The position numbers and the translations under genes were made by a program. This document shows positions 11,450-46,071 of a DNA stretch of 64,000 nucleotides, piece after piece; position 1 is the stretch's first letter, and every line of letters begins with the position of its first letter. Below the pieces are notes generated by a model. It saw nothing but the letters and a program-made list of their open reading frames with translations. It had not been told where the DNA came from and made no database searches. Where the stretch lies: NCBI GenBank assembly GCA_965242685.1, contig OZ251487.1, positions 93,591 through 157,590 of the forward strand, given 5' to 3'. Source of the DNA: Gammaproteobacteria bacterium. Lineage in GTDB: Bacteria; Pseudomonadota; Gammaproteobacteria; UBA4575.

Positions 11450-11845
11450 ATGGGCATTACAGAATTGATAGATAAATATGGCGAGGCGGGCGTAGTGTTT
11501 GGCTTTGTGCTGACTTGGATTATTTTCAGTTTCCAAATTAGAGGTATGAAAGGCCGAATTGATGGTATAGAAACCAACATCAATACCCGAATTGATGGTA
11601 TAGAAACCAATATCAATACCCGAATTGATGGTATGGAAACCAATATCAATACAAAGATGGAAGCCATCAACAAAAGCATTGAGAAACACGACACAGAGCA
11701 ACGGGAATTACGTGGTTTAGTGGTGGGCGTAATCCAAAGTATAGGCGACATCAAACAAAGCATAGGCGGGCTTGAAAAAATGATGGCAAGCCAACAACCC
11801 CAGACCGACAGCACACCGGCCGCCGCCACAGCACAGGGCAAATAA
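11450..11845 (+). CDS. small membrane-anchored coiled-coil protein with three 11-aa (33-bp) tandem repeats RIDGIETNINT
   Basis: 131 aa with an N-terminal TM helix (VVFGFVLTWIIFSF). The hendecad repeats are encoded at 11555-11653. Strand is chosen on plausibility; the antisense ORF 11326..11841 looks like a repeat artefact. Confidence 0.4.
   Translation: MGITELIDKYGEAGVVFGFVLTWIIFSFQIRGMKGRIDGIETNINTRIDGIETNINTRIDGMETNINTKMEAINKSIEKHDTEQRELRGLVVGVIQSIGDIKQSIGGLEKMMASQQPQTDSTPAAATAQGK
11555..11653 (+). repeat. 3 x 33-bp tandem repeat (cgaattgatggtatagaaaccaaYatcaataccc)
   Basis: Direct inspection; in-frame within the small CDS. Confidence 0.8.
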
Positions 11846-12101
11846 GTTCCGTTTCTCCCTTCTAATCCGTCCGGATAAATCAGAGCAATACTGAAAACCT
11901 TCGCCGCGGACCGGCCTCGCCCGAGCAGAATCGCGGATTGGTTTTTAGGCGTTCAATATCTGGCAAATTTCGGAGACAAATTTACCCTTTTAGAAATATA
12001 TCCTTCCCGCGAAACAGGGTTCTACCACCCGCAACGGCGGTTGATTTCCAGATCAGGGTAGAACGCGGGTCTGGTTTTTAGGCGTTCAATAGCTAGTGAT
12101 T
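11846..12101. repeat. module-flanking intergenic repeat block (family copy A)
   Basis: Contains tgatttccagatcagggtagaacgcgggtctggtttttaggcgttcaat units and the ggagacaaatttacccttttagaaatatatccttcccgcgaaacagggttctaccacccgcaacgg segment. Both recur at 16138-16497 and 19649-20031. Confidence 0.7.
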
Positions 12102-15100
12102 TCACCACCTGATCACGGCCTGTACGCCGATGCCGTGTTCGGTATCCTCGTCATCGTATTCGAGGCGTTCGCCTTCCAGTTTTAAGGTCAAGGCTTCGGT
12201 AAACTTGTACTCGCTCCCCAGTCGGTAGTGACGCCCTTCGTCCCGCACCCGCAGCCCCAGGTACGGCGTCAGCAGCCCCCGCCTGTGATACAACCCGTAC
12301 CCCAATTCGGTCTCCAACTGCAACGCGGTGTCGGCGGCCTCGTCCTCGTCCTTCAACGCCAGTCCCCGCTCCCACAGTGCGCCGATGCCGCCGCCGGTGG
12401 TGCCCCAACTCGGGATGACGCTAAATCGCAGCCCCCGCCCGTTGGCCGCCGGCAACCATTCCAAAGCCCCGCCAAGCCCCCATTCGTCCAAGTCCCCGCT
12501 ATGCGTCACCAGGTAGCGCCCGTGCGTGCGAAGGCGCAGCCCGCCGTTGCTATAACCAACATCCCCGCCGATCTCGACGCCACTGCCGGTCTCGCCGTCG
12601 CCGCCGTCATAGCGTACCCCCAGCTCCAGGCTCGAGGTCAGGATCGCGCCCGTCTCCAGCACCTGACGACGGCTGCCCTCGGCGGCCAGCCGCAGTCGGT
12701 GGGTGTCGATGGTTATGCCGTCTATACGGTCGCCGTTGTCGTCGATGCGCCACCGCGTGGTCTGTCCCTCGCCCCGAATGGCGATCTTCAGATCATCGCG
12801 TTCATAGACCCGCATACTGCCCCCCGCCGACAAGGTCTTGAGGGTGCTGTCGCTGCGTTGTTTCTCATCGAGATCCTCGTCGTCGATGGTGATCTCGCCC
12901 TCGCCGTAGCCCACCGTCGCCCACATCCGGCTGCCGTCTTCGCCGCTCCAGCCAAGGTACGGATGAATGCTCACCATCTCGCTCTCGTGATCGCCCTTGA
13001 TCGTCTCGCCTTCGCTACTATCTTTATAGTCGATGTCGCTCTCAAACCAGGATACGCTCACGCCGGCGGTCTTGTTTGTGCCCCATTCGGTATCGATCCC
13101 CAAGTGCCACGAGAAGGCATCGCCGTCCCAATCCAGCCAGCCGGTGTCTAACGCCAGATCGCGCCAGTCGCCCGCCCCCCACAAGGTCAGGTTGTTGCCG
13201 AAGGTATCGGCGCCGTTCAACGGCAGCGCAAAGTTTTGTCCGCTCAACGCCTGGCGCCATTTGAAGGTGCCGTCTTCCAATGATTGGGCGTTGCCTTGGA
13301 TTACATTCCCGAACGAGGAGGTCGGCGCCCGCGAACCGCCCCCCGCTCCTTCCAGTCGTTCGCGGATCGCCCGACCCACGCTGTCGGTCAACGCCCGCGC
13401 CAGCTCCGGTACGATCGATTCGTTGATGCGCCGCAGACGCGCCCGTTCCTTGTCCCGCGAGTTCTCGACGGTGATCGCAAACGTCATCATCGCCGTGCCG
13501 CCCACCACTTCCCAGGTGTAGTCGGTCGCCACTTGTTCTTCCGTCGGCGTGCCGCTGATGGTGCGCGTGCCCGCATTCAAACTCAGCCCCACCGGCAAGG
13601 CCGGGCTTAGGGTGTAGTCGACATCGCCGTCCACCAACTCCGGCAGGATCAACGCCGTGATCGGGGTGTTGACGGTATACACTTGATCGGGTATATCGAC
13701 ATAGCCCACCCCAAAGGCTGAAAACACACTCACGGTCGCGCATATCAAGTCGCTCCCGCCCGGATTGGTGCGCAAGGTCGTACCGCTCACGGCCTCCCAT
13801 TCGCCGCGCCCTTCGTCGTAGTGCAACAGCAACAGGGGACGCCCGGTCGCCGCCGTCTCCAGCTCGGCGCTATACGGCAGACAGATCTCTAGCCCGCCAC
13901 TCGGCACGGGGGCGACATCGATGTCGACCACGGTGCCATCGCCCAAGGTGTAGGTGCTGCCGGTCAACGGCACATTCGATGACACCCGACTCAGGGTGAT
14001 CGCCAAATCCTGGCCCAAGGCGGCCGGCGGCGCCACTTCCACCTCTTCGTCCACGCCCTCGGATACCGTCACGGTGACCGCCTGGCCGTTGATCTCGTAG
14101 TTGGTGGTGCCCGCTCTGTGCATGGCGATGCGCCGGTCGGCGCTGCCGCCTTGTACGGTGATGACCACGGCATCCGCCTGCGTGTCTTCGTAGCCGCTGC
14201 CGGTGCCGCTTACGGTGTGACCGATGGTCACGCCCCCCTTGGCGTAGTCGTCGTTGTCGGTCGCCACCGTCGCCGTCACCGTCACCGCGCCGTTCCAGTT
14301 GCCCGTCCCGAACGTGACGCTGCTTACATCGGGGGTGACGGCGGCATCGCCGCTCGTCAGGGTCAGCGTGACATTGGCCGCCGGCTCGGCGTCCAGCACC
14401 ACCGTATAGGTGCCGCTGCCCCCTTCGGCGATGGTCAGTTCGGTCGGCGTCACGGTCACGCCCTTGGTGTCGTCATCGACGGTGCGCACCGCCACGTCTC
14501 GTTGACTCAGCGCGGTGTAGACGCTGTCGCTGCCGGTCGGACTCGCCAACCGCACCGCATAGTCTTGATCGCCATCGTCCACAAAGTCGTCGACGCCGGT
14601 CAGCGTCACCGTCTGCGTACTGTTCCAGTTACTGGCCGTAAACGTCAGACTGGCCGGACTCACCGTCCCCTCGCTGGTGTCGGTGCTGCTCAACGCGATC
14701 ACCACGTTGGCGGTCGGCTCGCTGTCCAGCTCGACATCGAAGGTCGCGGTGCGGCTTGCGCCCGTCGCCTCGGTCACCGTCTCGCGCGGCGTACCCGCGC
14801 CCAAGTCGCTCAGCGTAATGCCGGCCGTGTCATCGTCGGTGGTGGTGACCCCCACGTCAACGTTGGCCAGACCGTTGTAGTTGGCGTCCGCGGTGCTCGC
14901 CGGATCAAGGGTGATGTCGTAGTTCTGATCGCCATCGTCAATGCTATCGTTCGCCCCGGTCACCGTCACCGTCTGATCGCTGTTCCAGTTAGAGGGCGTG
15001 AACGTCATACTGCTCGGACTGACCGTACCTTCGCCAGTGTCGGTGCTGCTGACCGCCACCGTTACGTTGGCCGTCGGCTGGGTGTTGAGTTTGACGGTGA

Positions 15101-15722
15101 ACGTCGAGGTGACCCCCGCCTCGGTCGCCTGGCCGGTGACCGCGCCGACGCCGAGGGTAGGCGACTCGTCGTCCAGGATCGTCAGCGTGGCGGTCGTGAC
15201 GGCGGTATGACCTTTTTCCCAATAAAAAGATGTATCACCTGCATCGTCACCAGGAAACTCCGCCGACACCGTCACCGTCCGGGTGCCGTCCACGTTTCCG
15301 TTGTCGGGAATCATGAGCGTCACCACCCCGTTCTCGGGCCGCGTAAGAGTGATTGTACCGGCGTTAGGTCTGTTATACCTCAGCCGCACATTGGTGCTCA
15401 GCGAGGCGCCGCCGGCGTTGGTGGGAGTCGATACGACAATATCAAAATATGCAAGGGCATTTAGGTGCGATGCTTTCGGATTGTATTGGCAATTGTGAAT
15501 CGTCCCGGTGCAAAGGATGTTAACGGGGACGGTCGCCGCCTGGCCCTCGGTGACGGTAAGCGAACTGGCGCGTTCCGCGCCCAACTCTATCCTGAAACTA
15601 TGGTGCTGGCCGGAGCCGGCATGCGCCCCCGCCGTACCCGCCGTCAGCAGTAGCGGTGCGGCCACAGAAACGCCGGCCAAAAGTCGGCGTACAAGGCGAT
15701 TGCGGAAAAGGCCAAGCACCAT
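12102..15722 (-). CDS. giant surface protein: signal peptide, tandem ~100-aa beta-sandwich (Calx-beta/cadherin-like) repeats, C-terminal autotransporter-type beta-barrel
   Basis: 1206 aa. Signal peptide LLAGVSVAAPLLLTAGTAGAHA. Repeated TANVTV..SSTDT.EGTVSP.S.TFT.SNWN..QTVTVTG.DD..DDGDQ.Y units. C-terminus ...GIGVQAVIRW. Paralogous to 16498..19164 and 20032..22353. Confidence 0.8.
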   Translation of the reverse strand: MVLGLFRNRLVRRLLAGVSVAAPLLLTAGTAGAHAGSGQHHSFRIELGAERASSLTVTEGQAATVPVNILCTGTIHNCQYNPKASHLNALAYFDIVVSTPTNAGGASLSTNVRLRYNRPNAGTITLTRPENGVVTLMIPDNGNVDGTRTVTVSAEFPGDDAGDTSFYWEKGHTAVTTATLTILDDESPTLGVGAVTGQATEAGVTSTFTVKLNTQPTANVTVAVSSTDTGEGTVSPSSMTFTPSNWNSDQTVTVTGANDSIDDGDQNYDITLDPASTADANYNGLANVDVGVTTTDDDTAGITLSDLGAGTPRETVTEATGASRTATFDVELDSEPTANVVIALSSTDTSEGTVSPASLTFTASNWNSTQTVTLTGVDDFVDDGDQDYAVRLASPTGSDSVYTALSQRDVAVRTVDDDTKGVTVTPTELTIAEGGSGTYTVVLDAEPAANVTLTLTSGDAAVTPDVSSVTFGTGNWNGAVTVTATVATDNDDYAKGGVTIGHTVSGTGSGYEDTQADAVVITVQGGSADRRIAMHRAGTTNYEINGQAVTVTVSEGVDEEVEVAPPAALGQDLAITLSRVSSNVPLTGSTYTLGDGTVVDIDVAPVPSGGLEICLPYSAELETAATGRPLLLLHYDEGRGEWEAVSGTTLRTNPGGSDLICATVSVFSAFGVGYVDIPDQVYTVNTPITALILPELVDGDVDYTLSPALPVGLSLNAGTRTISGTPTEEQVATDYTWEVVGGTAMMTFAITVENSRDKERARLRRINESIVPELARALTDSVGRAIRERLEGAGGGSRAPTSSFGNVIQGNAQSLEDGTFKWRQALSGQNFALPLNGADTFGNNLTLWGAGDWRDLALDTGWLDWDGDAFSWHLGIDTEWGTNKTAGVSVSWFESDIDYKDSSEGETIKGDHESEMVSIHPYLGWSGEDGSRMWATVGYGEGEITIDDEDLDEKQRSDSTLKTLSAGGSMRVYERDDLKIAIRGEGQTTRWRIDDNGDRIDGITIDTHRLRLAAEGSRRQVLETGAILTSSLELGVRYDGGDGETGSGVEIGGDVGYSNGGLRLRTHGRYLVTHSGDLDEWGLGGALEWLPAANGRGLRFSVIPSWGTTGGGIGALWERGLALKDEDEAADTALQLETELGYGLYHRRGLLTPYLGLRVRDEGRHYRLGSEYKFTEALTLKLEGERLEYDDEDTEHGIGVQAVIRW

Positions 15723-15741
15723 TGTACCTATGGTAAATCGC

Positions 15742-15755
15742 GGGGGGGGGGGGGG
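15742..15755. repeat. homopolymeric G14 tract (C14 on the coding strand), 19 nt upstream of the giant-protein start
   Basis: Counted directly. Conserved flanks aaatcgc-Gn-atattg are shared with the tracts at 19230 and 22419. Confidence 0.9.
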
Positions 15756-15780
15756 ATATTGGCATGATCATCCTAACTTT

Positions 15781-16137
15781 TCAGAAAAACAGGAGTTTGC
15801 CCACTATTAGCAGGGTAAGGCCCAAGTTCAACCCGATTGCCCATTGAAGCCAGGTCTGACCGATTTGGAGTTTGTCAATATCTGCCTTAAGCTCTTGTTT
15901 CAGTGCTTTATTATCTGCCTTAAGCTCTTGTCTCAGTGCTTTATTATCCGCCTTAAGCTCTTGTCTCAGTGCTTTATTATCCGCCTTAAGCTCTTGTCTC
16001 AGTGCTTCAAGATCTGTCTTGGTGGCTACTTCCGCGTCGGGGTGTTTGAACGTATCCACAATCACCCGCGCCTGCGCCTCCGGCATGTCGGCGGCGGTCA
16101 ATTTCCTGATGGCCTCGGCGGTGTCTATTGCATACAT
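15781..16137 (-). CDS. DUF1640-like tail-anchored coiled-coil protein (paralog A; 4 copies of the 33-bp repeat)
   Basis: 118 aa. Conserved N-domain MYAIDTAEAIRKLTAADMPEAQARVIVDTFKHPDAEVATKTD, then LRQELKADNKA hendecad repeats and a C-terminal TM helix (WAIGLNLGLTLLIVGKLLFF). Family assignment is from memory. Confidence 0.55.
   Translation of the reverse strand: MYAIDTAEAIRKLTAADMPEAQARVIVDTFKHPDAEVATKTDLEALRQELKADNKALRQELKADNKALRQELKADNKALKQELKADIDKLQIGQTWLQWAIGLNLGLTLLIVGKLLFF
15883..16014. repeat. 4 x 33-bp tandem repeat (gccttaagctcttgtYtcagtgctttattatcY)
   Basis: Direct inspection; encodes KALRQELKADN on the minus strand. Confidence 0.85.
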
Positions 16138-16497
16138 GGCTTTATCCTAAACGCCCACATCATAGCGAAGTTCAAGCGTCATTGGAATAAGCCACTATAT
16201 CCTAGATTATTCCCAAAGATAAATAGAGTGCCTAGTTGATCTCGACAGGGCGGTTTCTAGGCTTTCAATATCTGGTGATTTTCGATTTTCGGCGGTTAAA
16301 AATACCGCCTACAAGGGAGATAAAATCACCCTTTTAGGAATATATCCTTCCCGGAAATAGGGTTCTACCACCCGCAACGGCTGGTGGTTTTTTGATCAGA
16401 GTAGAATTGTAGATTGGTTATCTAGGCGTGCTATATACTGTTGATTCCAGATCAGAAGGCCGTAGATCGGTTTTTAGGCGTTCGATGGCGGGTGATT
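16138..16497. repeat. module-flanking intergenic repeat block (family copy B), including a hairpin + T6 terminator-like element
   Basis: accacc-N10-ggtggt followed by tttttt, and ccagatcag...gatcggtttttagg units. Homologous to blocks A and C. Confidence 0.65.
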
Positions 16498-19164
16498 TCA
16501 CCACCTATACTCGACGGTTACGCCGATGCCGTGTTCGGTGTCGGCACGGTCTTGCTCCAGACGTTCGCATTCGGTGTTCAGCGTCAGGGTTTCACGTAAC
16601 TTGAAACGTCCGCCCAACCGATAGTGACGCCCTTCGTCCCGCACGCTCATCCCCAAGTACGGCGTCAGCAGTCCGCCGATATGATGCCGTCCGTAGCCGA
16701 TCTCGCCGTCCAGCTTTAGACTGCTGTCCGGGTCTTCTTCGTCTTCCTCGTATAATGCCGCCCCCGCCTTCCACAACCGCTGTAGACCGCTCTCGGCGGT
16801 CCCCCAGGTCGGCGTCAGGGTGATGTGTAGACCTCGCCCATCGGTCATCGCCCTGTATACCAGCGATACGTTCGCGCCCCATTCATCGTAATCCGAATTC
16901 GCCACCAGCGTCCGCGCGCCCGCCGTCAGACCCAACCGGCCCGACCCGTAGTCTACGCCCACGCCCACTTCCGCACCACTGCCGGTGTCGCCATCGCCGC
17001 CGTCATAACGCACGCCCAGTTCAAATCTTGGCAATAACCGCGCGCCCGATGCCAGGATTTTCTCCTGCCTTGCCTCTACCGCCACCCGCAAGCGTGTTGC
17101 GTCCGACTTCTGTCGTTGAATGCCATCGCCGTTGTCGTCCACTTCGAAATCCGCATACATCGCCTCGCCCCGCAGCGAGACCTCGGTGCCATTGGCCGCG
17201 TACAACGGCCCCCGCGCCCCGGCCGAGGCCATTCGCATGTCGGCGTCCGACTTCTGACGCTGCCCGCCGGCGACGATCTCTAAATCGCCACTGCCAACGC
17301 CCGCCATCGCCCATAGGCTGATGCCGCCCGGCGTGATCCATCCCAAATAGGGTTGCGCACTGGTCATCTCCAGCTCCCACTTGCCCTTTTGACCCTGGTG
17401 TCCGTAATCTAATTTCGCCTCCGACCAGGTGGCCGCCAGCCCCACACGCAGACCGTTTGCCAGCAATCGATCCGCCCCCAGGTGGGCGCTGGTCACGTCG
17501 CCGTCCCACTTCACGCCGCGCGCCTCGCCATCGAGATCGCGGTAGTCGCCGCCGCCCCACAAGACGATGTCGCCACCGCCGCCCGCGTCATTCCCGTCCA
17601 GCGACAAGGCAAACGCCGCCTGCGGCAGCAGGTGTCGTTTCCAGTCTAATTCCCCGTCTTCCTGCATAGCCGACCCGTGTCGCATCAGCCGTTCCAAGTT
17701 TACGTTTTCCGTCAGCGAGGGTGATGGTGATGTCGGTGCCCCGCCCAAATCCGCCCGCTCGAGACGTTGACGCACCGCCGTCGCGCGGCTGTCCGCCATC
17801 GCCCGCGCCACTTCCGGCAGCAGTACTTCCGTCACCTCATCCCCCGCGCCGTCGTTGTCGGTGTTGGTTACCAACACCGTCACATCCGCCAGCGCGGCAT
17901 AGCGGGCATCGGAACTGCTCGGGTCCAGTCGCACCGCACAGGTCGCGCCGACATCGCTCACCATGTCGTCCACGCCCCGCACCGTCACGGTCTGCGGGGT
18001 GTTCCATAACCTTACCTGTGCGTCCGGGTCTTCGTCTGCGGCACTGAGCACGAACGTCAACGTCCCGCTCTCGCCGGCGGCAATGTAGGTCATGCCGCCG
18101 TCCACCGACACTTCGCACTCGTCGCCGTCTTGGCTTGAAACATCCACCGCCGAATCCACCTGCGGGATGGTCGACAGCCGCACCGTGAACGTGTCCGTGC
18201 CGCCATCCTCCGTGACTACGGTCGAACCGCCGCTCTCAACCACCGTCAGCCCCACTTCGTCGTCTTCGGTCATCACCTCGACGGTCTCCGTCGCCAGAGT
18301 GTTGTAATTGGTATCGCCGCTACTGCTCGGATCCAGCTCGATGTTGTAGCTCTGCGTGCCGTCTTGAATGGTGTCGTCGACGCCGGTCACGGTGACCGTC
18401 TGGGTGCTGTTCCAGTTGCTGTTCGTGAACGTCAGACTGGTCGGACTCGGCGTGCCCTCGCCGGGGTCGGCACTGCTCACCGCCACCGTTACGTTGGCGG
18501 TCGGCTGCGACGCCAGCCTGACGGTGAAGGTCGCCGTCTGCGCGGTGTTGCCTTCATTTGCCGTGCCGGTCACGGCACTCGTCCTGATCCCCGGCGTGTC
18601 TTCGTCCAGAATCGTCAGTGTGGCGGACTGGATAAAGACTTCTGGTACGTCGGAAATCTCCACAAAGTAATTCTGATCCGTACCATAAGTCCTAGGCGCC
18701 CCCGCTATGTTCACCGTCCGGTCTCCGTCCATAGCCGTATTGCCGGCAATCGTGAGCGTTACCGTCCCCGAAGTGTTCGAGCCTAAGGTATTCGAGCCTG
18801 CATTTATGGTAAACCCTAAGTGCTGACCCGTCTGCGTGATGCCGCCGGCGCCGCTGGGAGTCGGAGTCCCTGCGGTGATGGTAATACCGTTTCTGTTGTT
18901 TCGATTCTGGTCGGGATATCCATTCTGTTGGCAAGAAGCAGTTCCACCACCATGTGAGGTGCAGCGGACGGTGACGGCGACGGTCGCCGCCTGGCCCTCC
19001 GTGACGGTCAACGTGCTTGCCCCGTTCAACAACACCTCGAAGTGCAAATGACGGTTCGTCCCTATGTTATGCGCCCCCGCCGTACCCGCCGCAAGCAACA
19101 GCGACACAGATAGCAACGCCGCCGAAAGGCGGTGTGCAAGGCTATGGCGAAGTCCACGCATCAT
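16498..19164 (-). CDS. giant surface protein, paralog 2 (signal peptide, beta-sandwich repeats, C-terminal beta-barrel)
   Basis: The ORF-track start at 19305 reads through the poly-G tract (PPPPP). Start moved to MMRGLRHSLAHRLSAALLSVSLLLAAGTAGA (ATG at 19162-19164), matching paralog 3. C-terminus ...GIGVTVEYRW. Confidence 0.8.
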   Translation of the reverse strand: MMRGLRHSLAHRLSAALLSVSLLLAAGTAGAHNIGTNRHLHFEVLLNGASTLTVTEGQAATVAVTVRCTSHGGGTASCQQNGYPDQNRNNRNGITITAGTPTPSGAGGITQTGQHLGFTINAGSNTLGSNTSGTVTLTIAGNTAMDGDRTVNIAGAPRTYGTDQNYFVEISDVPEVFIQSATLTILDEDTPGIRTSAVTGTANEGNTAQTATFTVRLASQPTANVTVAVSSADPGEGTPSPTSLTFTNSNWNSTQTVTVTGVDDTIQDGTQSYNIELDPSSSGDTNYNTLATETVEVMTEDDEVGLTVVESGGSTVVTEDGGTDTFTVRLSTIPQVDSAVDVSSQDGDECEVSVDGGMTYIAAGESGTLTFVLSAADEDPDAQVRLWNTPQTVTVRGVDDMVSDVGATCAVRLDPSSSDARYAALADVTVLVTNTDNDGAGDEVTEVLLPEVARAMADSRATAVRQRLERADLGGAPTSPSPSLTENVNLERLMRHGSAMQEDGELDWKRHLLPQAAFALSLDGNDAGGGGDIVLWGGGDYRDLDGEARGVKWDGDVTSAHLGADRLLANGLRVGLAATWSEAKLDYGHQGQKGKWELEMTSAQPYLGWITPGGISLWAMAGVGSGDLEIVAGGQRQKSDADMRMASAGARGPLYAANGTEVSLRGEAMYADFEVDDNGDGIQRQKSDATRLRVAVEARQEKILASGARLLPRFELGVRYDGGDGDTGSGAEVGVGVDYGSGRLGLTAGARTLVANSDYDEWGANVSLVYRAMTDGRGLHITLTPTWGTAESGLQRLWKAGAALYEEDEEDPDSSLKLDGEIGYGRHHIGGLLTPYLGMSVRDEGRHYRLGGRFKLRETLTLNTECERLEQDRADTEHGIGVTVEYRW

Positions 19165-19229
19165 TAGTAATTTGCGGTGGCCGCCGAACCTCCTACGGTC
19201 TGCGCGGGATGTGGTAATTACAAATCGCG

Positions 19230-19244
19230 GGGGGGGGGGGGGGG
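19230..19244. repeat. homopolymeric G15 tract, 65 nt upstream of the paralog-2 start codon
   Basis: Counted directly; same conserved flanks as tract 1. Confidence 0.9.
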
Positions 19245-19333
19245 CAATATGTCGTTTCATCGGAGGCTGCTCCACGTGAGTTTGTCCTGTAATTCCCGCG
19301 TACAATAATACGTATAGTTATATCGGCGTTCAA

Positions 19334-19648
19334 TCAAAAAAATACGAGTTTGAGCACGATTAGCAGAGTAAAGCTTAAATTCGCCCCGATTGCCCATTTG
19401 ATCCATTTTAACTCTGTTCTAAACTCTGCTCTAAGCTCTCCAATATCCGCCTTAAACTCTTGTCTCAGTGCTTTATTATCTGCCTTAAGCTCTTGTTTCA
19501 GCCCGTTGATACTTGTCTCAAGATCTGTCTTGGTGGCTACTTCCGCGTCGGGGTGTTTGAACGTATCCACAATCACGCGCGCCTGCGCCTCCGGCATGTC
19601 GGCGGCGGTCAATTTCCTGATGGCCTCGGCGGTGTCTATTGCATACAT
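19334..19648 (-). CDS. DUF1640-like tail-anchored coiled-coil protein (paralog B; about 2 repeat copies)
   Basis: 104 aa; same N-domain and C-terminal TM helix as paralog A. 33-bp repeats at 19449-19514. Confidence 0.55.
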   Translation of the reverse strand: MYAIDTAEAIRKLTAADMPEAQARVIVDTFKHPDAEVATKTDLETSINGLKQELKADNKALRQEFKADIGELRAEFRTELKWIKWAIGANLSFTLLIVLKLVFF

Positions 19649-20031
19649 AACTTTATCCTAAACGCCCAACATTCTAGCGAAGTTCGGGCGTCATTGGAAT
19701 AAGCCACTATATCCTAGCTATTCCCAAAGATAAATAGAGTGTCTAGTTGATCTCGACAGGTCAGTTTTTAGGCTTTCAATGGCTGTTGATTTCCAGATTA
19801 GAGTAAAACCGCGGATCGGTTTTTAGGCGTTTAATATCTGGTAATTTTCGGAGACAAAATCCCCCTTTTAGAAATATATCCTTCCCGCGAAACAGGGTTC
19901 TACCACCCGCAACGGCTGGTGATTTCCAGATCAGGGTAGAACGCGGGTCTGGTTTTTAGGCGTTCGATGGCTGCTAATTTCAGATCAGAAGGCCGTAGAT
20001 CGGTTATCTAGGCGTGCTATATCTGTTGATT
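19649..20031. repeat. module-flanking intergenic repeat block (family copy C)
   Basis: Two tgatttccagatYagRgtaRaaccgcggRtcKgtttttaggcgttYaat units plus the conserved ggagacaaaatcccccttttagaaatat... segment. Confidence 0.7.
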
Positions 20032-22353
20032 TCACCACCTGTATTCAACCGTTACGCCGATGCCGTGTTCGGTGTCGGCACGGTCTTGCTCCAGGCGTTC
20101 GCATTCGGTGTTCAGCGTCAGGGTTTCACGTAACTTGAAACGTCCGCCCAACCGATAGTGTCGCCCTTCGTCCCGCACGCTCATCCCCAAATACGGCGTC
20201 AGTAGTCCGCCGACATGATGCCGTCCGTAGCCGATCTCGCCATCCAGCTTTAGACTGCTGTCCGGGTCTTCTTCGTCTTCCTCGTATAAGGCGGTCCCCG
20301 CCTTCCACAACCGTTGCAGGCCGCTCTCGGCGGTCCCCCAGGTCGGCGTCAGGGTGATGTGCAGACCCCGTCCGTCGGTCATCGCCCGATAGACCAGCGA
20401 TACGTTGGCGCCCCATTCATCGTAATCGGAATTCGCCACCAGCGTCCGCGCACCCGCCGTCAGACCCAATCGGCCCGACCCGTAGTCTACGCCCACGCCT
20501 ACTTCCGCACCGCTACCGGTCTCGCCATCGCCGCCGTCATAACGCATGCCCAACTCAAATCTCGGTAATAACCGCGCCCCCGATGCCAGGATTTTCTCCT
20601 GCCTTGCCTCTACCGCCACCCGCAAGCGCGTGGCGTCCGATTTCTGTCGTTGAATGCTATCGCCGTTGTCGTCCACTTCGAAATCCGCATACATCGCCTC
20701 GCCGCGTAGCGATACTTCTGTTCCATTGGCCGCATACAACGGCCCGCGCGCACCGGCCGAGGCCATCCGCATGTCGGCGTCCGATTTCTGACGCTGCCCG
20801 CCGGTGACCACCTCTAGATCGCCGCTACCGACGCCCGCCATCGCCCATAGGGAAATACCGCCCGGCGAGGTCCATCCCAAATAGGGTTGCGCACTGGTCA
20901 TCTCCAGCTCCCACTTGCCCTTTTGACCTTGGTGTCCGTAGTCGAGTTTGGCCTCCGACCACGTCGCCGCCAGGCCTACGCGCAGACCGTTTGGCAACAG
21001 CCGATCCGCCCCCAGGTGGGCGCTGGTCACGTCGCCGTCCCACTTCACGCCGCGCGCCTCGCCATCGAGATCGCGGTAGTCGCCGCCGCCCCATAAGACG
21101 ATGTCGCTACCCATGCCCTCGTCATCGTCCAGCGACAGCGCAAACGCCGCCTGCGGCAGCAGGTGTCGTTTCCAGTCTAATTCCTCGTCCTCTTGCATAG
21201 CCGACCCGTGTCGCATCAGCCGTTCCAAGTTTAAGTTTTCCGTCAGCGAGGGTGATGGTGATGTCGGTGCCCCGCCCAAATCCGCCCGCTCGAGACGTTG
21301 ACGCACCGCCGTCGCGCGGCTGTCCGCCATCGCCCGCGCCACTTCCGGCAGCAGTACTTCCGTCACTTCTCCCGTGCCGTCGTTGTCCGTGTTGGTGACC
21401 AACACTGTGGTGCGCGCTATCGCCATCGCGTATTGGGCATCGGAACTGCTCGGGTCCAGTCGCACCGCACAGGTCGCGCCGACATCGCTCACCATGTCGT
21501 CCACGCCCCGCACCGTCACGGTCTGCGGGGTGTTCCACAAACTCGTCTGTGCGCTGAGCAGGTCGCTCGGGTCGGAGCCATCGGGCAGGAACGTCAACGG
21601 CCCGCCAACACCGGCGGCGAGATACGTCATGCCGCCATCCAGCGACACTTCGCACTCGTCGCCGTCTTGGCTTGAAACATCCACCGCCACCGCCGCCTGC
21701 GGGTTGGTCGGCAGCCGCACCGTGAACGTGTCCGTGCCGCCATCCTCCGTGACTACGGTCGAACCGCCGCTCTCGGTTACCGTCAGCCGCGTGTCATCGT
21801 CCAGGATCGTCAACGTGGCGGACGCTACGATCGGTGCGATGTCATATCTACTTTGGAACCAAGATCCGTATGCCTGGCCCGGCAGCTGCGTCGCGTAATA
21901 CCCCTCCGCGTTCACCGTCACGGTCCGACGTCCGTCCATAGCCGGATTGCCGTCAATCGTGAGCGTTGCCCCGGTATTGGTCGTGCCGAGGTTTATATTG
22001 GTGGTAGGTAGGGTATTATACCGCGCCTGCGGATTGGCGTTCAGCGTGACGCCGCCGCCACTGGCGGGGGCCGTGGCACTGACGGTGAAGTAGGCGCTGT
22101 TGCGCCGAGGCAGCTCGGAGAAACCGGTGATACTGGTGCAGTGGGCCGTGCAACGGACTCTGGCGGTGACGGTCGCCGCCTGGTCCTCCGTGACGGTCAA
22201 CGTGCTCGCCCCGTTCAACTCCACCTGAAAGTGCGCATGGATGGTACTACCCCTACCATCCGCCCCCGCCGTACCCGCCGCAAGCAGTAGCGACACAAAC
22301 AGCAACGCCGCCGAAAGGCGGTGTGCAAGGCTATGGCGAAGTCCACGCATCAT
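20032..22353 (-). CDS. giant surface protein, paralog 3 (signal peptide, beta-sandwich repeats, C-terminal beta-barrel)
   Basis: 773 aa. The C-terminal ~450 aa are nearly identical to paralog 2 (same ...LLPEVARAMADSRATAVRQRLERADLGGAPTSPSPSLTEN... through GIGVTVEYRW). Confidence 0.8.
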   Translation of the reverse strand: MMRGLRHSLAHRLSAALLFVSLLLAAGTAGADGRGSTIHAHFQVELNGASTLTVTEDQAATVTARVRCTAHCTSITGFSELPRRNSAYFTVSATAPASGGGVTLNANPQARYNTLPTTNINLGTTNTGATLTIDGNPAMDGRRTVTVNAEGYYATQLPGQAYGSWFQSRYDIAPIVASATLTILDDDTRLTVTESGGSTVVTEDGGTDTFTVRLPTNPQAAVAVDVSSQDGDECEVSLDGGMTYLAAGVGGPLTFLPDGSDPSDLLSAQTSLWNTPQTVTVRGVDDMVSDVGATCAVRLDPSSSDAQYAMAIARTTVLVTNTDNDGTGEVTEVLLPEVARAMADSRATAVRQRLERADLGGAPTSPSPSLTENLNLERLMRHGSAMQEDEELDWKRHLLPQAAFALSLDDDEGMGSDIVLWGGGDYRDLDGEARGVKWDGDVTSAHLGADRLLPNGLRVGLAATWSEAKLDYGHQGQKGKWELEMTSAQPYLGWTSPGGISLWAMAGVGSGDLEVVTGGQRQKSDADMRMASAGARGPLYAANGTEVSLRGEAMYADFEVDDNGDSIQRQKSDATRLRVAVEARQEKILASGARLLPRFELGMRYDGGDGETGSGAEVGVGVDYGSGRLGLTAGARTLVANSDYDEWGANVSLVYRAMTDGRGLHITLTPTWGTAESGLQRLWKAGTALYEEDEEDPDSSLKLDGEIGYGRHHVGGLLTPYLGMSVRDEGRHYRLGGRFKLRETLTLNTECERLEQDRADTEHGIGVTVEYRW

Positions 22354-22418
22354 TAGTAATTTGCGGTGGCCGCCGAACCTCCTACGGTCTGCGCGGGATG
22401 TGGTAATTACAAAATCGC

Positions 22419-22435
22419 GGGGGGGGGGGGGGGGG
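22419..22435. repeat. homopolymeric G17 tract, 65 nt upstream of the paralog-3 start codon
   Basis: Counted directly; same flanks (aaaatcgc-G17-caatatgtcg). Confidence 0.9.
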
Positions 22436-22527
22436 CAATATGTCGTTTCATCGGCGGCTGCTCCACGTGAGTTTGTCCTGTAATTCTCGCATACAATAAT
22501 ACACTAGTTATAATATCAGCGGTTCAA

Positions 22528-22797
22528 TCAAAAAAATACGAGTTTGAGCACGATTAGCAGAGTAAAGCTTAAATTCGCCCCGATTGCCCATTTGATCCAT
22601 TTTAACTCTGTTCTAAACTCTGCTCTAAGCTCTCCAATATCCGCCTTAAACTCTTGTCTCAGCCCTTCAATATCTGTCTTGGTGGCTACTTCCGCGTCGG
22701 GATGTTTGATCGTATCCACGATTACGCGCGCCTGCGCCTCCGGCATGTCGGCGGCGGTTAGCTTCCTGATGGTGTCGGCGGTGTCTATTGCATACAT
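22528..22797 (-). CDS. DUF1640-like tail-anchored coiled-coil protein (paralog C; about 1 repeat copy)
   Basis: 89 aa, MYAIDTADTIRKL...; C-terminal TM helix. Confidence 0.5.
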   Translation of the reverse strand: MYAIDTADTIRKLTAADMPEAQARVIVDTIKHPDAEVATKTDIEGLRQEFKADIGELRAEFRTELKWIKWAIGANLSFTLLIVLKLVFF

Positions 22798-22798
22798 G

Positions 22799-23200
22799 TT
22801 AGAAAAACAGGAGTTTGCCCACTATTAGCAGGGTAAGGCCCAAGTTCAACCCGATTGCCCATTGAAGCCAGGTCTGACCGATTTGGAGTTTGTCAATATC
22901 TGCCTTAAGCTCTTGTCTCAGTGCTTTATTATCTGCCTTAAGCTCTTGTCTCAGCGCTTTATTATCCGCCTTAAGCTCTTGTCTCAGCTCTTTGATATCT
23001 GCCTTAAGCTCTTGTCTCAGTGCTTTATTATCCGCCTTAAGCTCTTGTTTCAGTCCGTTGATACTTGTCTCAATATCTGTCTTGGTGGCTACTTCCGCGT
23101 CGGGGTGTTTGAACGTATCCACAATCACCCGCGCCTGCGCCTCCGGCATATCGGCGGCGGTCAATTTCCTGATGGCTTCGGCGGTGTCTATTGCATACAT
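22799..23200 (-). CDS. DUF1640-like tail-anchored coiled-coil protein (paralog D; about 5 repeat copies)
   Basis: 133 aa. 33-bp repeats at 22902-23066 encode five ELKAD units. Confidence 0.55.
   Translation of the reverse strand: MYAIDTAEAIRKLTAADMPEAQARVIVDTFKHPDAEVATKTDIETSINGLKQELKADNKALRQELKADIKELRQELKADNKALRQELKADNKALRQELKADIDKLQIGQTWLQWAIGLNLGLTLLIVGKLLFF
22902..23066. repeat. about 5 x 33-bp tandem repeat
   Basis: Direct inspection. Confidence 0.85.
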
Positions 23201-23524
23201 GACTTTACCCTAAACTCCCTCATTGTAGCGAAGTTCAAGCGTCATTGGAATAAGTCGAGGTGGCCGCCGGCGATAAAACACGTAATCTGCTAATTTCCAA
23301 CACGGCATTTCCATTTATTTTGCCTGTCAATATCATATAGGACGGGGTTTGTGGAGTTAAAGATTCACGTACAGGCGAAGGTTATATCGCAGGCAACGTC
23401 TTGAGTAAAAATGGTACAATTTGCTTGCACCCGTTCTTGTTTGGAAAATATAGGTACGTATTATTCGTTTAAGCATTTCGTTCGCGTGCGATGTCTTGAA
23501 ACTTTTTGGCAACGAGGGCCAGTC

Positions 23525-24198: not shown

Positions 24199-25554
<1,356 letters not shown>

Positions 25555-34748: not shown

Positions 34749-36421
34749 AAAAGCTCATGTCATTGCTGCGTTTTTGGCGGCGCCCACGTTCTGCGCGGGA
34801 TATGGATACTGATTTTCAGGCAGCTTTTGCGGCATATCAACGCGACGACTACGCTACCGCCTTACGTGGATTTCGTCCGCTTGCCGAACAGGGACATGCC
34901 GGAGCCCAGCATAGTCTGGGATTCATGTGGTGCGCGTACCGGCACGTACCAGATGATGGTGTGGGACATGCCGGAGCCCAGCATAGTCTGGGATTCATGT
35001 ACTACTATGGACATGGTGTTGCCCAGGACTCTGAGGAGGCCGTGTCCTGGTTTCGCAAGGCCGCCGAACAAGGATTGGCCGCCGCCCAATTTATTCTGGG
35101 CACCTTGTACGAAGGAGGAAAAAAGGGCGTTGGCCGGGACTCCGCGCAGGCTATGTCCTGGTATCGCAAGGCCGCCAACCAGGGAAATGTCCAAGCCCAG
35201 TTTTTTCTGGGAGACATGTACCGCGAAGGAAGGGGCGTTGCCCGGGACTCCGCGCAGGCCATGTCCTGGTATCATAAGGCCGCCGACCAGGGATATGCCA
35301 AAGCCCAGGCTCTTCTGGGACTCGGGTACTACAACGGAGAGGGCGTTGCCCGGGACTCCGCACAGGCCGTGTCCTGGTGGCGCAAGGCCGCCGAGCAGGG
35401 AGATGACAGAGCCCAGTTTTCTCTGGGAAACATGTACCACGAAGGAGAGGGCGTTCCCCGGGACTCCGAGGAGGCCGTGTCCTGGTATCGCCAGGCCGCC
35501 GACCAGGGAAATGTCCAAGCCCAGTTTAATTTGGGATCTATATACTACAAAGGAGAGGGCGTTGCCCAGGACTTCCAACAGGCCATGTCCTGGTATCGTA
35601 AGGCCGCCGACCAGGGAATTACCAAAGCCCAGGCCCTTCTGGGAGTCATGTACGCCAAAGGCGAGGGCGTTGCCCAGGATCTCATACAAGCCTACGCCTG
35701 GTTTGATCTCGCCGCCGCACAAGGCGATGAAAACGCGAAGAGACTCCGGGACATGGTAAAGAAACGCATGACGCCGGCACAGCTTACCGAAGCCCAAAAG
35801 GGCGTTGCCCGGGACTCCACGCAGGCTATGTCCTGGTATCATAAGGCCGCCGACCAAGGAGATGCCAATGCCCAGTATAGTCTGGGAGCCATGTACTACG
35901 AAGGAAAGGGCGTTGCCCAGGACTATGAGCAGGCCGTATCCTGGTATCGCCAGGCCGCTGACCAAGGATTGGCCATCGCCCAGTTTAATCTGGGAGTCAT
36001 GTACTACCATGGACAGGGCGTTGCCCGGGATTACGCGCAGGCCGTGTCCTGGTATCGTAAGGCCGCCGAGCAGGGACATGCCGCCGCCCAGTATAGTCTG
36101 GGAGCTATGTACTACGAAGGAAAGGGCGTTGACCGGGACTTCGGGAAGACCATGTCCTGGTATCGCAAAGCTGCCGCACAGGGATTTGCCCTTGCCCAGT
36201 CTAATCTGGGAGTCATGTACGCCATGGGAGAGGGCGTTGCCCGGGATCTCGTACAGGCCTACGCCTGGTTTGATCTCGCCGCCGCGCAAGGCCATGAAAA
36301 AGCGAGGGAAGACCGGGACTTGATAAAGCAAACCATGACATCGGCCCAGCTTGCCGAAGCCCAGTACCTCAGCCGCGGCCTGGCGGCGCAGATTTCCCCG
36401 AATGAAAATCCGAAACCATAA
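34745..36421 (+). CDS. Sel1-like repeat (SLR/TPR-like) protein; appears to be an in-frame fusion of two paralogous units
   Basis: 558 aa of ~36-aa AQxxLGxMYxxGxGVxxDxxxAxxWYRKAAxQG repeats. Internal tail motif RLRDMVKKRMTPAQLTEAQK marks a junction. No signal peptide. Confidence 0.8.
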   Translation: MKKLMSLLRFWRRPRSARDMDTDFQAAFAAYQRDDYATALRGFRPLAEQGHAGAQHSLGFMWCAYRHVPDDGVGHAGAQHSLGFMYYYGHGVAQDSEEAVSWFRKAAEQGLAAAQFILGTLYEGGKKGVGRDSAQAMSWYRKAANQGNVQAQFFLGDMYREGRGVARDSAQAMSWYHKAADQGYAKAQALLGLGYYNGEGVARDSAQAVSWWRKAAEQGDDRAQFSLGNMYHEGEGVPRDSEEAVSWYRQAADQGNVQAQFNLGSIYYKGEGVAQDFQQAMSWYRKAADQGITKAQALLGVMYAKGEGVAQDLIQAYAWFDLAAAQGDENAKRLRDMVKKRMTPAQLTEAQKGVARDSTQAMSWYHKAADQGDANAQYSLGAMYYEGKGVAQDYEQAVSWYRQAADQGLAIAQFNLGVMYYHGQGVARDYAQAVSWYRKAAEQGHAAAQYSLGAMYYEGKGVDRDFGKTMSWYRKAAAQGFALAQSNLGVMYAMGEGVARDLVQAYAWFDLAAAQGHEKAREDRDLIKQTMTSAQLAEAQYLSRGLAAQISPNENPKP

Positions 36422-36475
36422 TTTCAGCCGCGACCTGGCGGTGAAGATCTCCTCGAATGAATACCTGGAGATAAA

Positions 36476-37540
36476 ATGGAAATAAGAATACCTATGAAAA
36501 CAGCCTTAAATACCTTATATGCAGCCGTCATCGCCGTGTCTTTGTCGGTGCCCGTATCGGCGGCAGACTTTGATGCGGCGGTGGAGGCCTACGAACGAGG
36601 CGACTACGCCACCGCCTTACGCGAATTCCGTCCGCTTGCCGAACAGGGATTGGCCGAGGCTCAGCTTGAACTGGGAAACATGTACCACGAAGGAAAGGGC
36701 GTTGAGAAGGACTACGAGGAGGCCGTGTCTTGGTATCGTAAGGCCGCCGAACAGGGAAATGCCTACGCCCAGTATAATCTGGGCCTCATGTACTACAAAG
36801 GAGAGGGCGTTGCCCAGGACTACGCGCAGGCCGTGTCCTGGTATCGCAAGGCCGCCGAGCAGGGAGATGCCGCCGCCCAGTATAATCTGGGATTCATGTA
36901 CGCCACAGGCGAGGGCGTTGCCCGGGACTACGCGCAGGCCGTGTCCTGGGTTCGCAAGGCCGCCGAGCAGGGAGATGCCGCCGCCCAGCATATACTGGGA
37001 TACATGTACCAACATGGCAAGGGCGTTACCCGGGACTACAAGGAGGCCGTATCCTGGTATCGCCAGGCCGCCGCACAGGGATTGGCCAAAGCCCAGTCTT
37101 TTCTGGGAGTCATGTACTACTTTGGACAGGGTGTTGACCGGGACTACGAGGAGGCCGCGTCTTGGTATCTCAAGGCCGCCAAACAGGGACATGCCGATGC
37201 CCAGTTTTATCTGGGCCTCATGTACGCCAAAGGCGAGGGCGTTGCCAAGGATCCCCGACAAGCGGTGTTCTGGTATCGCCAGGCCGCCGACCAGGGATTG
37301 GCCAAAGCCCAGTTTACTCTGGGATATATGTACTTCATAGGCGAGGGCGTTGCCAAGGACTACGTACAGGCCTACGCCTGGGTTCATCTCGCCGCCGCGC
37401 AAGGCCATGAATACGCGAAGGAACTCCAGGACATGGTAAAGCAAGCCATGACGTCGGCACAGCTTGCCGACGGCCAGCAACTTAGCCGCGAACTGGCGGC
37501 GAAAATTTCCCGAATGAATACCCGAACCCCCCATGATTGA
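36476..37540 (+). CDS. Sel1-like repeat protein with signal peptide
   Basis: 354 aa. Signal peptide [18 protein letters not shown]. Confidence 0.8.
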
Positions 37541-38101: not shown

Positions 38102-38262
38102 GCCCCCCTGTTTACGGTAGATTCAGGCTTAAAATCGAATAAGATACTAAAATCGACCCCCCTGTTTACGGTAGATTCGGCCTAAAATCAAATAAGGTGC
38201 CCAAAATCGACCTCCCTGTTTACGGGTAAATTCAGGCCTAAAATCGAATAAGGCACTTAAAA
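38100..38262. repeat. 3 x ~56-bp tandem repeat (cccctgtttacggtagattcaggcYtaaaatcRaataag...aaaatcgacc)
   Basis: Direct inspection. Confidence 0.8.
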
Positions 38263-38302: not shown

Positions 38303-38431
38303 AACATAAAGTAATTTCTAACTTTTTTCCGTCCATCCCGATATATCCCGAAATATCTCGTTAAATCCCATTATTCCCCCGATTTATCCCCGTTTTGTCC
38401 CAATTCGTCCCGATTTATCCCGATTTTTTTT
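38303..38431. repeat. about 9 x 10-11-bp phased repeat (WtcccgaWWtA), ending in a T-run
   Basis: Sequence catcccgatat atcccgaaat atctcgttaa atcccattat tcccccgattt atccccgtttt gtcccaattc gtcccgattt atcccgatttttttttt. Confidence 0.7.
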
Positions 38432-43617: not shown

Positions 43618-44047
43618 CCGGGAGTTGGCCAGGCAGTCGCTTCCCCGCTTGTGGGCACACGGGACGGGGAAGAGGAAAGTCCGGGCTTTTTGGGCGAGGC
43701 GCCAGGTAATGCCTGGAGGACGTGAGTTCATGGAAAGTGCAACAGAAAGTAAACCGCCCGACCACCCGGTACAACAGTCAGCCTCGTTTTTTGTAAAATC
43801 ACGTAAGGCTGATTGAAGGGACGGTCGGGTAAGGGTGAAATGGTGTGGTAAGAGCACACCGCTCAACCGGTAACGGTTGTGGCTAGGTAAACCCCGCCTA
43901 AAGCAAGACCAAATAGGGGAGTACGGAACTATGTTCCGGCACATGGCCCGTGTGGGCTCCCGGGTAGGTCGCTTGAGGTTTGTGGTGACACAAATCCCAG
44001 ATGAATGACTGCCCCCGACAGAACCCGGCTTATCGGCCGACTCCCGG
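43618..44047 (+). ncRNA. rnpB: RNase P RNA, bacterial type A
   Basis: Conserved blocks GGAAAGTCCGGGCT, AGGGTGAAATGGTGTGGTAAGAGCACACC, CCAAATAGGGGAGTACGG and ACAGAACCCGGCTTATCGGCC. Terminal P1 pairing ccgggagttggcc/ggccgactcccgg. Confidence 0.85.
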
Positions 44048-44314
44048 CCTATATGAATGCTGACTGTCCCCCTTAGTTATCCATCAACCTGACCGAAATC
44101 CATCAGCCTGACCCAAAGGACAAGGTCAAGGCACACTTGATTAATAAAACAAGTAAATAGCGCGATATTTTTAATGTAAAAAATAATATTATTTATTTAA
44201 CTATATAAATAGAAAAAGATATTATTTGTTTTTACATGGCCTCAGATATGGAATATCAAGGCCATGATCCTTCCGAAATCCTACATATTTTCTGGTTTTT
44301 CCCTTGAATTTTGC

Positions 44315-44344
44315 TTGCAATCTGAAAAAAAGCATTCCTATAAT
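44315..44344 (+). promoter_or_regulatory. sigma70-type promoter Pmra (TTGCAA - 18 nt - TATAAT)
   Basis: The -35 at 44315-44320 and -10 at 44339-44344 are well placed upstream of mraZ. Confidence 0.5.
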
Positions 44345-44353
44345 GTTGAAAAG

Positions 44354-44378
44354 TGGGGAATTATGGGATGTAGTGGGA
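44354..44378 (+). promoter_or_regulatory. MraZ operator: three direct TGGGN repeats at exact 10-bp spacing (TGGGG-aatta-TGGGA-tgtag-TGGGA)
   Basis: Matches the known MraZ binding-site architecture. Lies between Pmra and the mraZ start. Confidence 0.6.
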
Positions 44379-44401
44379 GATAGTTTCAGGGTATTTATCC
44401 T

Positions 44402-44860
44402 ATGTTACGAGGTATTAATGAACTTAGTCTGGACGACAAGGGTCGCTTGTCCCTTCCGGCCCGTTATCACGAGCACGTTCGCGAAAGCTGTGGGGGAAGT
44501 TTGGTTATTACCATTGACGCTGACGGCTGTTTACTGATTTACCCACTTTCTGAATGGGAGAGTATTGAGGAGAAGCTTCAGCAGTTGCCCAATACTAGCA
44601 GGCAGGTAAGAGATTTGCAGCGCATGCTTCTCGGTCACGCGACGGATTGTGGGGTTGATAAGCAAAATCGTATCTTGCTGCCTACATCTTTACGACAACC
44701 CGCCGGGTTGAAAAAACACGTAGTCTTGATCGGTCAAGGTAACAAGTTTGAGCTTTGGGACAGGCAAACCTGGGAGGACATGCGTGTGCGCTGGATCAGG
44801 ATCAAGGAACAGAGTGAGTTAAAAGGTCCTCCTGCCGAACTTGAAACACTCTCAATTTGA
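44402..44860 (+). CDS. mraZ: transcriptional regulator MraZ
   Basis: 152 aa with two DXXXR motifs (LSLDDKGRLSLP / VDKQNRILLP). Confidence 0.9.
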   Translation: MLRGINELSLDDKGRLSLPARYHEHVRESCGGSLVITIDADGCLLIYPLSEWESIEEKLQQLPNTSRQVRDLQRMLLGHATDCGVDKQNRILLPTSLRQPAGLKKHVVLIGQGNKFELWDRQTWEDMRVRWIRIKEQSELKGPPAELETLSI

Positions 44861-45801: not shown

Positions 45802-46067
45802 GCAGGCTGGCGTTAATCGTGATTTTATTCGCTATCAACGTCTTTGTTGGAGTTGGGGTCGTTTATTCAAAACATTCTGTTCGCAAGGCATTTGTTGAAC
45901 TACAGGGTTTGCAGGAACAATTTGATGAGTTGCAAGTGGAGTGGCGGCGTCTGCAACTGGAACAAAGCACTTGGGCAACGCACAGCAGGGTGGAACGGCT
46001 TGCGCGCGAGAAATTGGATATGCATCTTGTAAATGGGAGCGGGCTGATATTTTTAAGAGTGCCCTGA
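45795..46067 (+). CDS. ftsL: cell division protein FtsL
   Basis: 90 aa, single TM helix plus coiled coil; position between rsmH and ftsI. Confidence 0.8.
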   Translation: MLSRLALIVILFAINVFVGVGVVYSKHSVRKAFVELQGLQEQFDELQVEWRRLQLEQSTWATHSRVERLAREKLDMHLVNGSGLIFLRVP

Positions 46068-46071
46068 AATT

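Follow-up and report, generated by a model that had tools for sequence, protein, structure and literature searches.

Four small proteins with hendecad stalks of different length in a gammaproteobacterial genome: probable members of the DUF1640/CCDC90-like family

What are the proteins encoded by a set of near-identical small genes that carry different numbers of one and the same 33-bp repeat, and does the number of repeats matter? The question is raised by four paralogous genes, named A, B, C and D, on the minus strand of a 64,000-nt stretch of contig OZ251487.1 from a member of the Gammaproteobacteria (the whole stretch is referred to below as the window). An earlier sequence-only reading had described their products as tail-anchored coiled-coil proteins and had tentatively placed them in the DUF1640 family. 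Following the analysis presented here, we think it probable that A–D are paralogues of the DUF1640/CCDC90-like family (Pfam PF07798) composed of a head, a neck, a stalk and a membrane anchor, in which the number of 11-residue units (hendecads) sets the distance between the head and the membrane, with a scaffold role assigned by analogy. Membership in the family is supported by profile homology, by the neck motif and by the architecture. More than 1500 clusters at 50% identity attest to the wide distribution of the family, to which the human mitochondrial scaffolds MCUR1 and CCDC90B belong; its bacterial members have no assigned role.

Gene A (15781..16137, minus strand, as are all genes of this group) encodes a protein of 118 aa with the head at residues 1–34, the neck VATKTD at 37–42, a stalk of four units, a C-terminal transmembrane (TM) helix and a tail of type 1. 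The product of B (19334..19648; 104 aa) has two units, a 4-aa insertion and a tail of type 2; that of C (22528..22797; 89 aa), one unit and a tail of type 2; that of D (22799..23200; 133 aa), five units, a 4-aa insertion and a tail of type 1. Residues 1–42 (MYAIDTAEAIRKLTAADMPEAQARVIVDTFKHPDAEVATKTD) are the same in A, B and D, with three substitutions in C; between the first three, the head-coding sequences show 0–3 synonymous differences. The 19 C-terminal residues of all four proteins have a mean Kyte-Doolittle hydropathy of 1.99–2.06, with no residue beyond the helix, as expected of a C-terminal anchor. The near-identical N-terminal domains and C-terminal TM helices proposed earlier are thus confirmed. 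When the genes were laid out in rows of 33 nt, the pattern L[KR]QE[LF]KADxxx was counted four times in A, twice in B, once in C and five times in D, which reproduces exactly the copy numbers of the 33-bp (11-aa) unit given by the sequence-only reading. Tandem Repeats Finder reports the corresponding 33-bp arrays in A (15879..16007, minus strand; 3.9 copies, 97% matches, score 237), where they encode NKALRQELKAD units, and in D (22897..23054, minus strand; 4.8 copies, 90% matches, score 260). These are near-identical in-frame DNA units of the kind that underlies size variation by tandem repeats.

The same reading had held that the paralogues differ mainly in the number of repeats. The counts agree with this, but the number of repeats is not the only difference. 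Directly behind the neck there is a 4-residue indel, with LEALRQE or IEGLRQE in A and C and LETSINGLKQE or IETSINGLKQE in B and D. Further, two alternative tails exist: A and D end in ...KLQIGQTWLQWAIGLNLGLTLLIVGKLLFF, B and C in ...EFRTELKWIKWAIGANLSFTLLIVLKLVFF, and the two members of a pair have tails of identical DNA sequence. Since all four combinations of indel and tail are present, A–D are recombinant mosaics. The window holds four of at least seven paralogues encoded on the same 1.83-Mb contig; the others include proteins of 123, 137 and 140 aa. Variants of 74 to at least 161 aa were found on metagenome contigs, where the flanks are mosaic as well, so that these variants were not matched to particular loci of the window. 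In public sources the A–D proteins are singletons without names.

The Pfam search that had been suggested for A–D gave PF07798 as the best or second-best match for each of them (24.9, 23.4, 29.2 and 25.3 bits, respectively; E from 1e-5 to 1e-7), in all cases below the gathering score of the family (33.5 bits). The searches of the small proteins in NCBIfam and PADLOC yielded nothing beyond coiled-coil noise. A word-indexed search retrieved only 20 close relatives, all of them at least 53% identical and starting with MYAIDTAE... A profile built from the shortest members and run exhaustively with HMMER yielded 1554 representatives of clusters at 50% identity with E≤1e-3 (41 with E≤1e-10), nearly all of them 80–250 aa long and having the same layout. 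Two PHROG families were also matched (phrog_17872 and phrog_9415; E down to 4.6e-11). Scans for the head motifs in GTDB species representatives, JGI metagenomes and IMG/VR found no close relatives, and tblastn against phage records gave no match; the subfamily of A–D was seen in only a few ENA assemblies.

At the profile level the homology extends to accepted members of PF07798, the head included. Among the 50 relatives in alignment A2, which contains B and C, 48 match PF07798 (best E 1.2e-14). The profile of this alignment matches the crystal structure of the human CCDC90B head (PDB 6h9m) with E=6.9e-8 over profile positions 3–86, from the FDT motif through QAE, and PDB entry 6h9l with E=7.4e-11 via the ATKEDIEALRK repeats of the latter. 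DUF1640 proteins have been described as prokaryotic and mitochondrial integral membrane proteins, whose stalk starts with a β-layer motif [aliphatic]-A-T-K-[polar]-[D/E] (PMC4786415). All four proteins have V37-A-T-K-T-D42 at this place, and A38, T39, K40 and D42 are conserved in at least 90% of the 50 relatives; the neck would thus be expected to form a β-layer. In the AlphaFold2 model of C (89 aa; mean predicted local distance difference test score 91.4), helices span residues 6–15, 20–31 and 40–88, residues 32–39 are non-helical, and the last helix continues without interruption through the stalk and the anchor. The Foldseek search of the PDB gave no significant match. Profile homology, the neck motif and the architecture bear out the assignment to DUF1640, with single-sequence Pfam scores staying below the threshold. 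The head-neck-stalk-anchor architecture has already been described, and the locus of A–D mainly re-identifies it.

Hydrophobic residues of the stalk occupy phases 2, 5 and 9 of 11 in A and phases 2, 6 and 9 in D, that is, they show the 3-4-4 spacing of the core positions a, d/e and h expected of hendecads; the phase of D is shifted relative to that of A because of the 4-residue insertion. The units of 49 distant proteins (195 in total) are hydrophobic at positions 2, 6 and 9 in 56%, 92% and 95% of cases, respectively, and their consensus is (E/A)(L/T)K(A)D-I-x-x-L-R-x. Among 148 distant representatives, the top period of sequence identity is 11 in 86; most of the others have 18, 7, 22 or 29. 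Hence, a variable number of hendecads is a trait of the whole family and not a peculiarity of the locus. Coiled coils of the 11/3 type are slightly right-handed (PMC4786415), and the earlier proposal of hendecads, whose coiled coil would be right-handed, agrees with the hydrophobicity of three phases of 11 at the 3-4-4 spacing. In sequence, the repeat (ELKADNKALRQ) resembles a degenerate version of the neck unit (ATKTDLEALRQ).

The 4-residue indel converts the 7-residue first unit into an 11-residue unit and fits the definition of a classical stutter (PMC4786415); both 4- and 11-residue indels thus preserve the packing of the core. Counted from the ATK lysine up to the first tryptophan of the anchor, the stalk comprises 26 residues in C, 41 in B, 55 in A and 70 in D, and from 11 to 99 residues in close relatives. 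At ~0.15 nm per residue, the rods in the window would be ~4–10 nm long if fully helical, and simple α-helix arithmetic suggests ~1.6 nm per 11-residue unit. Modulo 11, the stalk lengths fall into classes 0, 4, 8, 7 and 5 only. These classes were not counted as a test, given that the sequences are related and that steps of 4, 7 and 11 can build any length.

In the proposed scheme each protein would consist of four parts: a two-helix head (residues 1 to ~31), the non-helical V-A-T-K-T-D neck, an α-helical stalk of hendecads and the terminal membrane helix. A–D have no signal peptide, and basic residues are located on the N-terminal flank of the anchor helix. From these two features the proteins are predicted to be most likely tail-anchored in the inner membrane, with the head and the stalk in the cytoplasm. 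The stalk may form a parallel trimer, as in the solved relatives, and its periodicity is compatible with this. The rod would act as a spacer, the number of hendecads setting the distance between the head and the membrane. Variants of different length would arise in the DNA, where near-identical 33-bp units may slip or recombine unequally, while the 4-residue stutter indel would turn a heptad into a hendecad, and recombination between paralogues would shuffle stalks and tails. The analogy with MCUR1/CCDC90B and yeast Put6/Put7 suggests that the proteins may serve as a membrane-bound scaffold whose head binds a partner.

The genes lie within 12.1–23.3 kb of the window, in a tandem triplication of a ~3.5-kb module (cassettes 1–3). 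A module is made up of a repeat-bearing spacer, the conserved block, one small gene or two, a poly-C tract and a large gene, with the small genes placed ahead of the large one. The large gene of cassette 1 (12102..15771, minus strand) contains a 1206-aa open reading frame (ORF) from 15722, with ATG at 15771 or 15765 as the candidate true start. The product has a signal peptide and immunoglobulin-like passenger domains, and its C-terminus is homologous to those of the other two (66% at the DNA level); Pfam gave no match to the autotransporter β-domain PF03797 in this gene. The autotransporter-like genes of cassette 2 (16498..19260, minus strand) and cassette 3 (20032..22451, minus strand) match PF03797 with 40.7 and 42.5 bits, respectively, at a cut-off of 26 bits, and have signal-peptide-like N-termini, as type V autotransporters do. 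The large genes are 66–94% identical among the cassettes. No terminator-like site was found between the small and the large genes, and the small genes are probably co-transcribed with the large genes downstream. The small-then-large order also occurs on two independent metagenome contigs, L082 and L083, with gaps of 1–16 nt: in L082 two identical 115-aa genes are followed 1 nt downstream by a homologous large gene, and in L083 genes of 122 and 74 aa precede a large gene.

Repeats of the type GCCTAAAAACCGATC...CTGGAAATCA..., short and degenerate, occur in the spacers at 11936–11950, 16248–16262, 16465–16479, 19759–19773 and 19814–19828 (five matches vs 0.04 expected by chance), as well as upstream of the L082 small genes (L082 1–230). 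The G+C content equals 60–63% in the cassette region (12001–22000) and 46–49% in the right-hand third of the window (44001–64000); this contrast hints at a different compositional history of the large genes.

The poly-C tracts (all on the minus strand) are 14 nt long in cassette 1 (15742..15755), 16 nt in cassette 2 (19229..19244) and 17 nt in cassette 3 (22419..22435). They are located 10–80 nt past the stop codons of the small genes, and each is preceded by an ATG. Read from this ATG, only the gene of cassette 2 is in frame (ATG at 19260, through C16). To be in frame, the tract would have to be C13 or C16 in cassette 1 and C15 or C18 in cassette 3, whose ATG (22451) does not share the frame of the large gene at C17, subject to the caveat that assembled homopolymer lengths may be wrong and that a downstream ATG could also serve as the start. 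In L083 (1051–1120) the homologous gene starts with ATGCCTATATCCCCCCTCACA... (M-P-I-S-P-L-T-H-R-L-L-A-A-L-L...), contains only six Cs and continues in frame into a signal peptide, and cassette 1 has the same ATGCCAATATCC start. The tract therefore lies within the 5' coding region, in support of an on/off switch that works by frameshifting. Provided that the homopolymer lengths are not errors of the assembly, these observations suggest that the large genes undergo phase variation at the level of translation, via poly-C. We considered the poly-C tract as a part of the small-gene module and rejected this, as L082 has no tract, L083 has only C6, and in L001, a related 1.76-Mb genome, C17 (3911–3927) lies ~100 nt upstream of an unrelated lipoprotein gene. 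The latter case shows poly-C tracts to be a habit of the lineage that is independent of DUF1640.

Each of the small genes A, B and D is preceded by a conserved block (16138..16195, 19649..19706 and 23201..23258, respectively, minus strand), whereas C, which starts 1 nt past the stop codon of D, has no such block of its own. The block, TTCCAATGACGC...GCTAtgAT...AGGATAAAGCC-ATG in A, is promoter-like and includes a Shine-Dalgarno-like AGGA. The form TTCCAATGACGC...GCTAnnAT...AGGATAAAG-ATG is common to A, B, D and the diverged contig L082, with AGGA 7 nt before the ATG.

The possibility that the plus-strand ORFs over the same DNA (MSISALSSC...) are the real genes, or that the region is a non-coding repeat, was weighed using these blocks and ten diverged copies of the small genes from the window, L001 and L082–L084. 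On the antisense strand, every copy, those of relatives included, is covered by a long ORF. The ratio of the proportions of nonsynonymous and synonymous differences (pN/pS; Nei-Gojobori counts in all frames) equals 0.09 in the minus frame, 0.21 in one antisense frame, and 1.27 and 7.85 in the other two. The value of 0.21 belongs to the frame that shares wobble positions with the sense frame, so that the low ratio is passive there, and the sense value is still lower. Of the variable head sites, 15 of 20 are at codon position 3 of the minus frame; this enrichment was dropped as a test of the strand, given that the same antisense frame (plus ORF 15872–16150) shares the wobble positions. Deep homologues (more than 1500 cluster representatives), the conserved upstream block and the AGGA-N7-ATG start exist for the minus frame only, and the antisense ORFs begin with TTG. 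The plus-strand ORFs are thus artefacts, as had been proposed, and we consider the chance of the opposite negligible. Another rival would have the 11-residue repeats form amphipathic helices of the apolipoprotein, late embryogenesis abundant or perilipin type, lying flat on the membrane without a coiled-coil rod. The period of 11 would suit such helices, and the Pfam family Apolipoprotein (PF01442) is matched by D (E=1.2e-6) and by 6 of 50 relatives; the score of 28.8 bits, however, is far from the cut-off of 90, which does not place the proteins among apolipoproteins. Hydrophobic residues at only 3 of 11 positions make a narrow stripe, the related PDB entries 6h9l and 6h9m hold three chains each, and the DUF1640 stalk is treated as a coiled coil in PMC4786415. 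We find helices of this kind quite unlikely here. About as unlikely, in our opinion, is a periplasmic head with the rod serving as a spacer or tether of the envelope, an Lpp-like ruler that would cooperate with the outer-membrane autotransporters encoded alongside. The arrangement of the small genes with autotransporter-like genes in five cassettes and the location of two distant members near TolC-like or type I secretion genes speak for it, but a charged N-terminal region of 65–110 residues would have to be exported without a signal peptide, the basic residues are on the N-terminal flank of the helix, three further distant contexts have no secretion genes, and the eukaryotic members face the matrix (PMC7519068; bioRxiv preprint 10.1101/2025.10.14.682030).

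The most substantial alternative retains the family and concerns the meaning of the length: the differences between the stalks may be functionally meaningless, neutral by-products of unstable 33-bp repeats and of gene conversion among recent cassettes. Such drift is plausible and agrees with the family assignment. The DNA of the units is 90–97% identical, the cassettes stem from a recent tandem triplication, and stalks of 11 to 99 residues are all found among close relatives. Moreover, the few synonymous differences between the heads of A, B and D (0–3), set against 66–94% identity of the partner large genes, suggest homogenization. On the other hand, the hydrophobic 3-4-4 phase is retained in every variant, and most indels are of 11 or 4 residues and preserve the packing of the core, which points to selection on a functional rod but not on a particular length. 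Neutral variation of the length is a possibility that we take seriously but do not favor. 

Several observations weigh against the reading that we prefer, in which A–D are DUF1640/CCDC90-like scaffolds with a head-to-membrane distance set by the hendecad count. Each of the four scores under the gathering threshold of PF07798, and they span only ~60–100 of the 175 positions of this model. In a third of the units of the subfamily, Ile at the core position a is replaced by Asn, which could weaken the canonical core, and the unit expanded in A and D is the Asn-containing NKALRQELKAD. In cassette 2 a separate promoter-like site lies between the small gene and the large one. The small genes of L001 flank a type III methyltransferase and not autotransporters, and distant members have no conserved neighbor, the seven sampled contexts being heterogeneous; a specific functional tie of the small genes to the autotransporters is therefore a tentative one.

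A partner conserved across the wider family was rejected as a candidate, since the seven contexts comprise TolC-like genes, type I secretion, housekeeping genes, a restriction/NACHT island, insertion sequence/HNH genes and plasmid accessory regions. Together with L001, these contexts show the link to autotransporters to be lineage-specific synteny and not a rule of the family. In L001 (7622–14462) two family members bracket the type III DNA methyltransferase and are followed by a helix-turn-helix gene and a ResIII helicase. A more ambitious reading makes the DUF1640 genes dedicated leading genes of contingency loci, in which a conserved promoter and a length-tunable tail-anchored scaffold would stand before interchangeable phase-variable cargo (autotransporters in the window, a type III methylase in the relative), and the stalk variant would be co-selected with the cargo or needed for its biogenesis or control. 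We regard it as unlikely; if true, it would give the first functional context for bacterial DUF1640 proteins. As a local feature, the presence of putatively phase-variable autotransporters in the cassettes is of modest interest. What the locus offers is a compact natural series within a single genome, with one head, one anchor and rods estimated at ~4–10 nm. Together with the reproducible autotransporter-like neighborhood, this series may be used to test the effect of the rod length and to search for the partner of the head.

Other repeats and genes were observed in the window. A 131-aa ORF at 11450–11845 (plus strand), convergent with cassette 1, has an N-terminal TM helix, three copies of RIDGIETNINT (Ile at 3-4-4 spacing; 33-bp repeat in three copies at 11554–11652) and further coiled coil. 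Its product is thus another small hendecad protein with a membrane anchor, to all appearances not related to A–D, and no Pfam family was found for it. Three long arrays with a period of 108 bp (36 aa; 4–7 copies, 76–78% matches) and a Sel1/TPR-like appearance occupy 34963–37372. An 18/36-bp tandem repeat (24204–24291; 4.7 copies, 89–96% matches) is located directly upstream of murA (24295–25554), whose product is at most 78% identical to that of any GTDB species representative, the best matches being uncultured Gammaproteobacteria and metagenome-assembled genomes of Thiotrichales. There are also a 54-bp tandem repeat at 38103–38253 (2.8 copies, 87%) and a degenerate 10-bp array at 38335–38426. 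The sole Rfam match in the window is the bacterial RNase P RNA of class A at 43621–44048, plus strand (RF00010, 324.6 bits).

The closest known systems are human CCDC90B and MCUR1 (CCDC90A) and yeast Put6/Put7, all from PF07798 (DUF1640). The 'uncharacterized protein' of PDB entry 6h9l, which we take to be archaeal Kcr-0859, resembles A–D in the 11-residue units of the stalk, its ATKEDIEALRK aligning with ATKTDLEALRQ and ELKADNKALRQ of the window. The structure of Kcr-0859 was reportedly obtained by Adlakha and co-workers (2019, in Structure, volume 27, page 464). The match to 6h9l covers the repeat region and not the head, and 6h9l has A-T-K in every repeat, whereas A–D have it once, at the neck. 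Plasmid proteins of Vibrio parahaemolyticus and Ca. Megaera annotated as 'DUF1640 domain-containing protein' (31–39% identity over 85–97% of the query) and the phage families phrog_17872 and phrog_9415 share with A–D the small size and the head-stalk-anchor layout. The plasmid and phage genes, however, are single genes in accessory regions, while A–D form arrays of paralogues before autotransporter genes. Phase-variable autotransporters of pathogens include those with poly-C tracts, as in Neisseria nalP. The locus of A–D resembles the size-variable and phase-variable proteins of pathogens in that in-frame tandem repeats alter the protein length and homopolymer tracts in the 5' coding regions of the neighboring autotransporter genes could switch expression. 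Classical size-variable proteins are surface-exposed, whereas A–D are predicted to face the cytoplasm and are known here as paralogues, not as alleles of one locus.

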